29,020 bases of DNA, taken from contig JACQQD010000010.1 in NCBI GenBank assembly GCA_016207165.1, forward strand, positions 1 through 29,020, written 5' to 3'. Shown in pieces: positions 4,357-6,085 of this stretch. How positions within the stretch are numbered: the stretch's first letter is position 1; every line of letters begins with the position of its first letter. Under the pieces are notes generated by a model, which saw only the letters and a program-made list of their open reading frames with translations, was not told the DNA's origin and searched no databases. The position numbers and the translations under genes are program-made. The stretch comes from Candidatus Micrarchaeota archaeon. GTDB taxonomy: Archaea; Micrarchaeota; Micrarchaeia; Norongarragalinales; Norongarragalinaceae.

Positions 4357-4394
4357 GGAGCTTGTCGATGTGGGCGGCAGCCCCCATCGACTCC
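4357..4394. repeat. GC-rich palindromic hairpin (member 1 of local hairpin family)
   Basis: gtcgatg-t-gggc-ggca-gccc-c-catcgac flanked by ggag/ctcc. Confidence 0.75.
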
Positions 4395-4401
4395 GCTCAA
4401 A

Positions 4402-4517
4402 ACGAGCCCGAGGGGATTCGGCACCGGGACCACAGGGGGCTCCGCCCCCTATAGTCCTACGCTTCCCCGAACCCCCCGACTTGCGGGCGAACTGAACTAC
4501 GAGCCCGAGGGGATTCG
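4402..4517 (-). mobile_element. Miniature insertion/att scar in the tRNA-Arg 3' end (19-bp direct repeat, 97-bp period, internal hairpin)
   Basis: acgagcccgaggggattcg at 4402-4420 and 4499-4517; 14-bp stem at 4427-4457 between them. Confidence 0.7.
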
Positions 4518-4606
4518 AACCCCCGGCCTACTCCTGTGCCCTCGCGGTCCGGAAACCCTTTCCGCATTAGGACGGAGCCGCTCTATCCAGGCTGAGCTAC
4601 GGGCCC
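4500..4606 (-). tRNA. tRNA-Arg(CCT) with 32-nt intron at 37/38 (4536-4567)
   Basis: GGGCCCG TA GCTC AGCCTGGATA GAGC G GCTCC GT CCT A [intron] A GGAGT AGGCC GGGGG TTCGAAT CCCCT CGGGCTC G. BHB motif: GTCC/GGGC helix with TAA and ACA bulges. Confidence 0.93.
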
Positions 4607-4630
4607 AATGCAAAAAACGTGTACACCGTA

Positions 4631-4640
4631 AATTATAATT
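4631..4640. promoter_or_regulatory. Palindromic, probably bidirectional TATA box (tRNA-Arg and ORFan A)
   Basis: Perfect palindrome AATTATAATT, about 25 nt from both the tRNA 5' end (4606, minus) and GTG 4664 (plus). Confidence 0.6.
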
Positions 4641-4663
4641 GGTGGTCAAAGGAAAAAAACAGC

Positions 4664-5164
4664 GTGGAACTGGAACGCCTGCAAGAAGCCGGATTGGTTT
4701 CCAAGGAAAAAATGAGGTCGTACCGAAAGCCCGATGTATACGACGGCAACCTCGTGGAGAAAGAAGAGCACCGCGTCTACGCGGTTCCATTGTCTGAAAT
4801 TCTGGGAGAAAACGTGCCGGGCCGCGCGTACGTGGCCGTGCGCGAACTTTGGTTTTCCGACCCGAAGCGGCCCCGAATCGTGCGCCACGTCTTGGGCGTC
4901 GTCCACCCTGGCGACCTGCCCGTCCTGGCCGCGCGAACTCTCTCCCGCAAAACGCAGGCCGTCTACGCGGAGGAGCGCTGGCAGGAACACATTGAAGGTC
5001 GGCTGGAAGAACTGGAAAAAGGGCCGTTTGAGAAACCGCTTCCATTTCACGCGTTCACAGAAGAAGGCCGGCAGAAAGCGGAGGAGGCGTTGCGATACGC
5101 CACCGGCAAGAAATACATTTATTGGACGCCTCCAAACCATCCCCCAACCAGGAAAGAAAGTTGA
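4664..5164 (+). CDS. Hypothetical protein (ORFan A)
   Basis: E/K-rich ORF; GTG 4664 lies behind AAGGA and about 25 nt after the TATA box (track start 4619 is upstream of the TATA box). Confidence 0.6.
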   Translation: MELERLQEAGLVSKEKMRSYRKPDVYDGNLVEKEEHRVYAVPLSEILGENVPGRAYVAVRELWFSDPKRPRIVRHVLGVVHPGDLPVLAARTLSRKTQAVYAEERWQEHIEGRLEELEKGPFEKPLPFHAFTEEGRQKAEEALRYATGKKYIYWTPPNHPPTRKES

Positions 5165-5171
5165 ACTTGAA

Positions 5172-5327
5172 ATGGTCATCGAGGCACTCAAGGAAAAGCA
5201 GTGGATTTACCACCGTTTCCAAAACATGATGACGGAGATTCAAGACCAAATCCACTTCGTTTCCGACCCCGAACTGCCCGGACACATGATCCCGGTGCTC
5301 GTGAGGAAAAAAACAGCGTGGAACTAA
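5172..5327 (+). CDS. Small hypothetical protein (ORFan B)
   Basis: MVIEALKEKQWIYHRFQNMM...TAWN; host-like codons; starts 7 nt after the ORFan A stop. Confidence 0.4.
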   Translation: MVIEALKEKQWIYHRFQNMMTEIQDQIHFVSDPELPGHMIPVLVRKKTAWN

Positions 5328-5530
5328 TCGGCTTGGACGCGAAACGAACCCGAAAAAGCGTGCCGGCCACGCAAATCATGGGCATCGTGCCCTTGGAAAC
5401 AATTCCAAGCGGTCATCGAATGGAAAATGGGGTGTGGAATCCTCAAAAAATGCAGCTGGCCGTACACAGAATTGCGGACACAGAATTTGGGGAACGCATC
5501 CGAATGAGAATTCTGGGCTCCCAGGCCTAA
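5318..5530 (+). CDS. Small hypothetical protein (ORFan C)
   Basis: GTG start behind GAGGA, inside a 22-bp repeat of the ORFan A start region; MELIGLDAKR...GSQA. Confidence 0.45.
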   Translation: MELIGLDAKRTRKSVPATQIMGIVPLETIPSGHRMENGVWNPQKMQLAVHRIADTEFGERIRMRILGSQA

Positions 5531-5607
5531 GCCCGATTTTTAAGGGCTTCCAATTCAGACAGCAAGTTCCACACCAGCGTTCGGGCATGCATGGGCAGGT
5601 TGACGTC
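5527..5607 (-). pseudogene. Displaced duplicate 3' end (26 codons plus stop) of the UPF0147 gene
   Basis: Encodes DVNLPMHARTLVWNLLSELEALKNRA*, identical to the peptide from 5660-5740 but with 16 synonymous codon differences. Confidence 0.9.
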
Positions 5608-5659
5608 GGTCGCCCCAGGGGGAAGCGTCCCCCTTGGCCCGCCCTGGGCCTCGACCCCC
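5608..5659. repeat. Structured GC-rich spacer between the two UPF0147 3' ends
   Basis: GGTCG/CGACC outer pair, AGGGGGA-AGCG-TCCCCCT (5617-5634) and GGCCC-GCCCT-GGGCC (5636-5650). Confidence 0.75.
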
Positions 5660-5914
5660 TCACGCCCTGTTTTTCAGGGCCTCAAGCTCGCTGAGCAAAT
5701 TCCAAACAAGAGTTCGAGCGTGCATGGGCAGGTTTACGTCGTTGGAGACTTCGTCCAAGGCGTACACGGCGGCCGAGATTTTCGTGGAAAAGTCGTCCGA
5801 GCTTTGGAGTCGGGCTTTGGCGTCCGCCATTTTGGTGCGGACGTTGCGCGGCACCGAGTTGTCGTCGATAAGCATGTCCAAAAGCGGATACATTTTCTCG
5901 AGTCGTTCACTCAT
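5660..5914 (-). CDS. UPF0147 family protein
   Basis: DxSVPRNVR and LDEVSNDVNLPMHARTLVWN signature; ATG 5914 preferred as start. Confidence 0.92.
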   Translation of the reverse strand: MSERLEKMYPLLDMLIDDNSVPRNVRTKMADAKARLQSSDDFSTKISAAVYALDEVSNDVNLPMHARTLVWNLLSELEALKNRA

Positions 5915-6085
5915 GCCAATCACGGAAAAGCGTTCACGCGTCGCGGGAAAGCCACAGCGCCAACGGGTTTACTACGTTTGGGAAGTGGCACGCTTATAAA
6001 CGTATTTTTCGGATTTTCCGCGAAAAGCGTTAAATAGCGTCTCCCGCTTTAATGCATTCCTGATTTTTCGGGTGGGGAAAAGCGC

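Follow-up and report, generated by a model that had tools for sequence, protein, structure and literature searches.

What are the two short spacers that part a tRNA gene and a protein gene from second copies of their own 3′ ends in the genome of a Candidatus Micrarchaeota archaeon? The stretch in question (the window) is a whole contig, C10, of 29,020 bp, from a genome (G000) of 1.27 Mb in 12 contigs that has 56% GC and is 90% complete. At the first locus, the intact tRNA-Arg gene lies on the minus strand at 4500-4606 (Rfam RF00005, 45.5 bits, full length) with a 39-nt intron and a functional 3′ end (R); the gene was missed by ARAGORN, and its anticodon, CCU (Arg), was read by eye. Its 3′ end is repeated as a displaced copy (L) on the minus strand at 4402-4420, an exact 19-nt direct repeat of 4499-4517 that spans the T-loop to one base beyond the discriminator and has the native T-tract next to it on that strand. 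At the second locus, the intact UPF0147 gene (5660-5923, minus strand; PF03685, E 2.7e-23) contains the functional copy (R) of the duplicated end at 5664-5741, and a displaced copy (L) of its last 26 codons, with its own TAG stop, lies on the minus strand at 5527-5608. These two ends form a 78-nt repeat, 5531-5608 against 5664-5741, that is 77% identical. An earlier note, made from the sequence alone, had proposed that the two insertions share an architecture and that their spacers are similar, and both points hold: the 19-nt tRNA-Arg and 26-codon UPF0147 end repeats flank the two spacers, and the spacers belong to one family.

We find that both spacers are copies of one structured repeat family consisting of a core of ~55 nt and a variable right arm. 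Element copy 1 (4421-4498, plus strand, subfamily sp1) begins with 2-4 nt of filler, after which come the structured core (4423-4480) and, up to 4498, a linker or right arm. Element copy 2 (5606-5663, plus strand, subfamily sp2) has a two-hairpin core, and its final bases supply the TGA stop of the functional UPF0147 gene. The covariance model R1 scores the two at 65.3 bits (E 9.4e-9) and 58 bits, and nhmmer gives E-values of 5.8e-11 and 1.2e-7. With blastn, spacer copies were found on seven other contigs of the same genome at identities of up to 97-100%, copy 1 matching G000:C9:68428-68491 at 97% across 65 nt and copy 2 matching G000:C11:80506-80561 at 100% across 56 nt. Altogether, the genome contains 20 copies by the nhmmer profile and 18 by the covariance model at E≤0.01, with near-identical copies at unrelated loci. 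We searched 61 relatives, including G001, G002 (same genus), G009, and G020, and a separate phylum-wide sample of 151 genomes. The family was matched in 15 of the former, with 21 copies in G001, 16 in G002, and 12 in G009, and in 4 of the latter; genomes with several copies occur only in the genus of the window and in one or two genera close to it. The only Rfam matches in the whole window are two tRNAs, and the element has none at gathering score.

Alignments show that sp1 and sp2 have the ~55-nt core in common. The earlier note had allowed that the hairpins might be unique, randomly placed, or no more alike than shuffled GC-rich stems; they are multi-copy, and their main stem covaries, with 93.4% of cells paired versus 78.9% in shuffles (none of 500 reached the observed value) and ≤65% when the partners were slid, although most double changes in the stem separate sp1 from sp2, so that the figure reflects few independent covariation events. 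The sp2 core folds into two hairpins enclosed by an outer stem. The ends of the element are conserved, not ragged scars; its left and right ends are unrelated to one another, and inverted repeats are only internal (I5, I21). It holds no gene, the room of 60-100 nt being too short for an open reading frame. A third hairpin, at 4357-4394, had been counted as part of the same system. This 12-bp hairpin, which lies between the displaced tRNA end (just upstream of it) and a metallo-beta-lactamase-fold gene (downstream), folds well (z -4.26), yet it matches neither the nhmmer profile nor the covariance model; it is therefore not a family member, and the proposed set of three hairpins was wrong. The 10-mer reported from both spacers does occur twice, against 0.08 expected, but it sits at non-homologous alignment positions, falling within the loop in one copy and within the 3′ segment in the other.

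Where do these elements sit? Of the 20 copies in the window's genome, 16 have flanking direct duplicates that score at least 17, as do 14 of 400 randomly chosen windows; the relatives G001, G002, and G009 together give 26 of 31. The duplicates vary in length from 17 to 110 nt, and they come from the 3′ ends of tRNA genes or from either end of a protein gene. The four genomes together have more than 35 distinct targets, both tRNA and protein genes, and among the pairs many match perfectly (38/38, 47/47, and 29/29, for example). In the window's genome, cores lie within 200 nt 3′ of 7 of the 36 tRNAs called by ARAGORN, and two more loci resemble uncalled tRNAs; none of the 36 has a core inside it, intron included, and all cores are 3′ of the gene. 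Duplicates of protein-gene 3′ ends often terminate right at the stop codon, as at C9:68441, and those of 5′ ends begin 0-13 nt upstream of the start codon. With the core in one orientation, the parts follow a fixed order: the displaced copy comes first, then 0-8 nt of filler, the core, its variable right arm, and last the intact gene. The intact gene is to the right of the plus-oriented core at every clear tRNA locus (19) and every scored protein locus (17); coding signal in the left flank is strong at only 5 of 39 loci and does not run on into the displaced copy (L060 is unclear). Fillers vary at both junctions, and the inner junction falls in the T-loop or T-stem at 19/19 clear tRNA-linked loci. 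The 5′-end targets, the polar orientation, the T-loop junction, and the synonymous-only duplicate differences discussed below are features beyond those in the earlier note.

Several individual loci show further arrangements. Four have two cores at one tRNA or gene end, in tandem or inverted (L001 at G000:C6:20984-21125, L055, L062, and L077); these are nested or repeated insertions at one site. At the ATPase-D start (L005:311-436, G000:C11:80460-80585), the displaced start codon opens a 41-codon frame across the core that stops three bases past the real ATPase-D start codon, an overlap that suggests coupled translation, and the bases before the real start resemble a ribosome-binding site that the element may supply in part. 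At L085 (G009:C107), the short tail of the working copy appears to be encoded by the right arm of the element and differs, by eye, from that of the displaced copy; on the predicted reading frames, insertion there changed the last residues of the protein.

Have the elements moved? The arrangement in the window is reproduced by independent Logan contigs from four runs of one study, all groundwater metagenomes, one of which covers 5101-6000 with zero differences; contigs of the four runs break at cores and contain neither a joined empty site nor a circular junction, and they are uninformative on polymorphism or excision. The closest named relatives of the window's UPF0147 gene are likewise groundwater Micrarchaeota assemblies. 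Orthologues of the tRNA-Arg gene are present in G001, G002, and the metagenome relative L134, and in G002 and L134/L135 the tRNA-Arg and UPF0147 genes converge with just a few bases between them, and both the duplicate and the core are absent. The ATPase-D start and the C9:68441 site are both empty in G001 and G002. At the empty sites of G001, G002, or L134, the sequence that is duplicated in the window's genome is single-copy: 78 nt for UPF0147, 58 nt for the ATPase-D start, and 51 nt for C9:68441; the duplicates at tRNA cases are shorter, at 19-27 nt. Additionally, the same genes have been hit at different junctions, indicating independent hits: UPF0147 in G001 carries an sp2 core with a junction 4-5 nt off from that in G000, and the ATPase-D start in G009 is hit at a different codon than in G000. 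Among 60 UPF0147 loci from other genomes and metagenomes, 2 have an end duplication, one of them with a family core (probably the G001 locus). The other is a distant UPF0147 gene on a metagenome contig (L153:422-735) that is followed by a 220-nt insert with a small hydrophobic open reading frame and then a second copy of its last ~28 codons, with mostly synonymous and three conservative changes; the duplication is of the same kind, but its cargo is unrelated to the family.

The best reading of these observations is that the elements are mobile, non-autonomous, gene-less, mobilised in trans, and specific to one small Micrarchaeota lineage. The earlier note had raised a trans-mobilised miniature family as one of two possibilities, and it is supported by the multiple copies, the restriction to a lineage, the empty sites, the independent junctions, the lack of genes, and the absence of an adjacent recombinase. 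The window contains no integrase of the PF00589 family, as had been stated. The genome encodes three tyrosine recombinases of that family on other contigs; two are zinc-ribbon paralogues, and the third, next to tRNA-Met, marks one end of what is likely an 11.7-kb island. Typical copies have no recombinase nearby. Searches of the 90%-complete genome with SSV-type integrase, RVT_1, Cas1 (PF01867), and TnpB, with DDE families outside the search, returned no matches, and the Y1 transposase (PF01797) had none in this genome whereas control genomes matched. The earlier note had also suggested looking for co-occurrence with tyrosine recombinases or HUH/Rep nucleases. The zinc-ribbon integrase family is present in 31 of the 61 relatives, many of them element-free, and absent from the element-bearing G020 (71% complete), a distribution that does not track the element.

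At the island itself (G000:C1:152884-164767; L021, L016), tRNA-Met is followed by the 372-amino-acid tyrosine recombinase gene, and a 15-nt repeat of the tRNA-Met 3′ end 11.7 kb away abuts an sp2-like core with an enlarged loop (G000:C1:164694-164767). This is probably an integrated island that ends beside a core, with a geometry unlike that of the other copies. We also considered target-primed retrotransposition, prompted by A-rich ends of sp1 right arms at A-rich target boundaries; sp2 is without this feature, RVT_1 was not matched in the genome, and the idea was rejected.

How might such an element insert and leave a working gene? We favour insertion with a long target-end duplication for four reasons: many of the pairs are perfect, the targets number in the dozens, the fillers at the junctions vary, and genes have been hit independently at different junctions. 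The element would be copied into the extreme end of a tRNA or protein gene along with a direct duplication of the 17-110 nt target end, and the gene would survive because its end is duplicated. The duplication could arise via staggered breaks and fill-in, or if copying switched template to a hairpin-forming copy and then returned. Under this scheme, insertions with perfect duplicates would be the young ones, and in diverged pairs that agree at the protein level, such as UPF0147, one copy would later have been exchanged by homologous recombination for another lineage's functional allele, the conserved core serving as portable homology for the exchange. We lean towards this combination of insertion and later exchange tentatively, giving it a little less than an even chance.

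Much weighs against it. The 17 protein-linked pairs differ at 127 bases in all but at just 17 amino acids, and each of these replacements is conservative. Reading frames for this count were set from a codon-usage model trained on long open reading frames and applied to the gene body alone, since choosing the longest frame gave wrong frames in this GC-rich genome; the alignments are ungapped by construction, so a frameshift would shorten the block and not appear as such. The UPF0147 pair in G000 has 18 differences and 15 differing codons with no amino-acid change, and that in G001 has 18 differences with one. The two codon versions (including Ser TCT/AGC) occur in both genomes with their positions swapped. 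Differences that are all synonymous or conservative exclude simple duplication and neutral decay for the diverged pairs. Nor is the divergence of duplicates an insertion clock, since the UPF0147 and ATPase-D cores are 100% identical while their duplicates are 77% and 86% identical. Furthermore, 15-17 of the 19 displaced tRNA ends have a 1-2 nt insertion in or beside the T-loop, and duplicates finish exactly at a stop codon or 0-13 nt before a start codon. We know of no enzyme that makes staggers of 17-110 nt, and the allele-exchange step is conjectural. An element-borne replacement end is at least as good a fit to every one of the sequence observations in this paragraph.

Other details of the diverged pairs bear on where the two copies came from. 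Each UPF0147 pair keeps its own genome's residues (V..R in G000, I..K in G001), and its inner 20-29 nt are nearly identical while the outer part is saturated; at L082 in G002, 68 identical bases are followed by 11 differences in 32. The C-terminal motif of UPF0147 is conserved phylum-wide, which lessens the surprise at a match at the protein level, but not fully. Because synonymous sites are saturated even between genomes of the same genus, neither UPF0147 copy can be assigned as native. Two further ideas were tried on these pairs and rejected: read-through or frameshifting that would extend UPF0147 into its displaced end (counted by eye, the gene's stop and that copy lie in different frames), and a diversity-generating retroelement (the differences are synonymous and not adenine-specific, and no reverse transcriptase was matched).

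The strongest rival is a miniature integrative cassette, in which core, right arm, and the cassette's own copy of the target end integrate within the homologous segment, either att-like through a tyrosine recombinase in trans or by a Campbell-type event through host recombination; the host end is displaced, and the cassette end becomes the working end. It would account for differences that are only synonymous or conservative with stops retained, for blocks of identity beside the inner junction with divergence farther out (L082 in G002, UPF0147), for duplicates that finish at functional gene ends, for the different C-terminal tail of the working copy at L085 in G009 (seen by eye), and for the fixed orientation and T-loop junction at tRNAs, the T-loop being the classic integrase crossover region; three tyrosine recombinases in the genome are at hand. 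Why the differences are synonymous, the insertions polar, and the tRNA junctions in the T-loop is better explained by the cassette than by duplication, but the cassette fails on target number: each of the >35 targets requires a matching cassette, with no evident route to new target ends. Many perfect duplicates, a circle of 100-200 bp that is very small for double-stranded recombination, and the distribution of the zinc-ribbon integrase (31/61 relatives including many element-free, absent from element-bearing G020) also count against it, as does the finding that same-target cores across genomes are less alike than different-target cores within one genome. We regard the cassette as possible but, on balance, doubtful.

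A bolder version of the preferred insertion with duplication would make this a new class of mobile DNA: gene-less structured elements with no transposase of their own that are copied towards T-loops and gene ends, by template switching or by some enzyme, and rebuild the gene ends they hit, with cores at the ends of essential genes that act as portable homology for gene-end swaps between related lineages. It would account for pairs whose agreement is confined to the protein level, and it could explain the acquisition of tRNA fragments and inserts in archaea. We put it forward as a speculative possibility that is less likely than not.

The remaining rivals are much weaker. A non-mobile host signal behind genes, such as a terminator, processing site, or small RNA, with the duplications produced by local slippage, would fit the covarying stem, the T-rich right arm behind 3′ ends, and the presence of some copies behind the same tRNAs in three genomes. 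However, orthologous sites are empty in most relatives (UPF0147 has the end duplication at 2 of 60 loci, one with a core, and G002 is empty), tRNAs and both ends of protein genes carry copies, the number of copies depends on the lineage, near-identical copies lie at unrelated loci, and no Rfam family matches, all of which makes a host signal improbable. Still less probable is an RNA-level element related to archaeal bulge-helix-bulge introns that spreads in transcripts and returns to DNA; the host lineage does have many tRNA introns, and a 14-nt stretch of the tRNA-Arg intron resembles the left end of the core by eye, but the 36 tRNAs have no internal core and all cores are 3′, no RVT_1 reverse transcriptase was matched, and protein-gene targets and long DNA duplications are unexpected from splicing chemistry. 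That the core is the scar of a larger element leaving through its hairpin as a nick or origin site, the earlier note's other suggestion, is hardly credible: a core on C1 does abut the tRNA-Met repeat 11.7 kb from that tRNA, which has an integrase gene next to it, but that geometry differs from all other copies, the element ends are conserved, the genome has no match to a Y1/HUH nuclease, and both cores were without a match in phage and plasmid collections, where no larger core-bearing element was found.

Between the two loci of the window lies a 920-bp segment (4607-5530, from tRNA-Arg to the displaced UPF0147 end) with no counterpart in G001, G002, G009, G020, or G007, and the tRNA-Arg gene is inverted relative to these five genomes. 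Two open reading frames in the segment, 4619-5164 and 5201-5530, have no Pfam match. An exact 22-nt direct repeat (4650-4671 and 5304-5325, 654 nt spacing) encodes the same short peptide near the starts of both frames and may be a further end duplication around an insert.

The genomes of DPANN archaea are tiny and densely packed, with few recognisable mobile elements. This family appears able to insert into such a compact genome without killing genes, as it lands on a gene or tRNA end and a full working copy remains. Its polarity, its T-loop junction, and its duplicates that match only at the protein level fall outside standard models of transposition and integration; the mechanism, if found, would add a mode of DNA mobility and could bear on the fragmentation of archaeal tRNA genes. 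In practical terms, assemblies break at these elements, and the pseudo gene ends that they create will mislead annotation pipelines.

The element fits no described type of mobile DNA, and full-text literature searches, supplements aside, turned up no account of elements like these in Micrarchaeota or DPANN. Like MITEs (miniature inverted-repeat transposable elements), Correia elements, and repetitive extragenic palindromes and bacterial interspersed mosaic elements (REP/BIME), it is short, structured, gene-less, multi-copy, lineage-specific, and presumably trans-mobilised. Unlike MITEs, it has no terminal inverted repeats and no short target duplication of fixed length (17-110 nt, variable). 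Candidate parent transposases (Y1_Tnp, TnpB) had no matches in the 90%-complete genome, DDE families being outside the search. Unlike REP/BIME, it has no REP-associated tyrosine transposase (RAYT; Y1, PF01797) gene in the genome, and unlike all repeats of these kinds it occupies the ends of genes and rebuilds those ends. Elements that integrate by replacing a gene end, such as e14 and phage 21 at icd and those with tRNA-targeting integrases, share with it a displaced pseudo-end by an intact end, synonymous differences, a fixed orientation, and the T-loop junction at tRNAs; our element differs in encoding no integrase or other gene, in its unit of 100-200 bp, and in having dozens of targets rather than one. 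It is unlike a casposon, as no Cas1-family integrase (PF01867) was matched in the genome. Bulge-helix-bulge introns lie inside the RNA gene with the splicing motif at both junctions; the cores here are 3′ of tRNA genes and within none of the 36. Long variable duplications are also made by IS1634-type elements, which encode a DDE transposase.

Archaeal tRNA fragments and introns have been linked to the integration of a mobile element of 1.8 kb that encodes a recombinase (Sugahara et al. 2012, PMC3293823). As far as the portion of that report drawn on here goes, the two cases are alike in that a mobile element has left a displaced tRNA fragment next to an archaeal tRNA gene, and differ in that the published one involves neither a hairpin mini-element nor protein-gene targets. 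The nearest described phenomenon is the insertion of restriction-modification genes with a long duplication of the target in bacteria. Insertion with long and variable target duplication was reportedly described by Nobusato and colleagues in 2000. According to the sections of a later study on which we rely, such inserts have no mobility gene and are flanked by direct repeats that exceed 30 bp and vary in length, the repeat occurs once in genomes lacking the insert and in many cases overlaps a gene 3′ end or tRNA, the cargo is kilobase-sized, and the screen yielded no archaeal case (Furuta et al. 2010, PMC2853133). On that partial basis, the element resembles these insertions in its >30 bp flanking repeat, which is single-copy at the empty sites of relatives, in its position at gene 3′ ends or tRNAs, and in its lack of a mobility gene; it departs from them in its cargo, a non-coding, multi-copy hairpin of 55-80 nt, and in its fixed polarity, its T-loop junction, and its near-synonymous duplicates.

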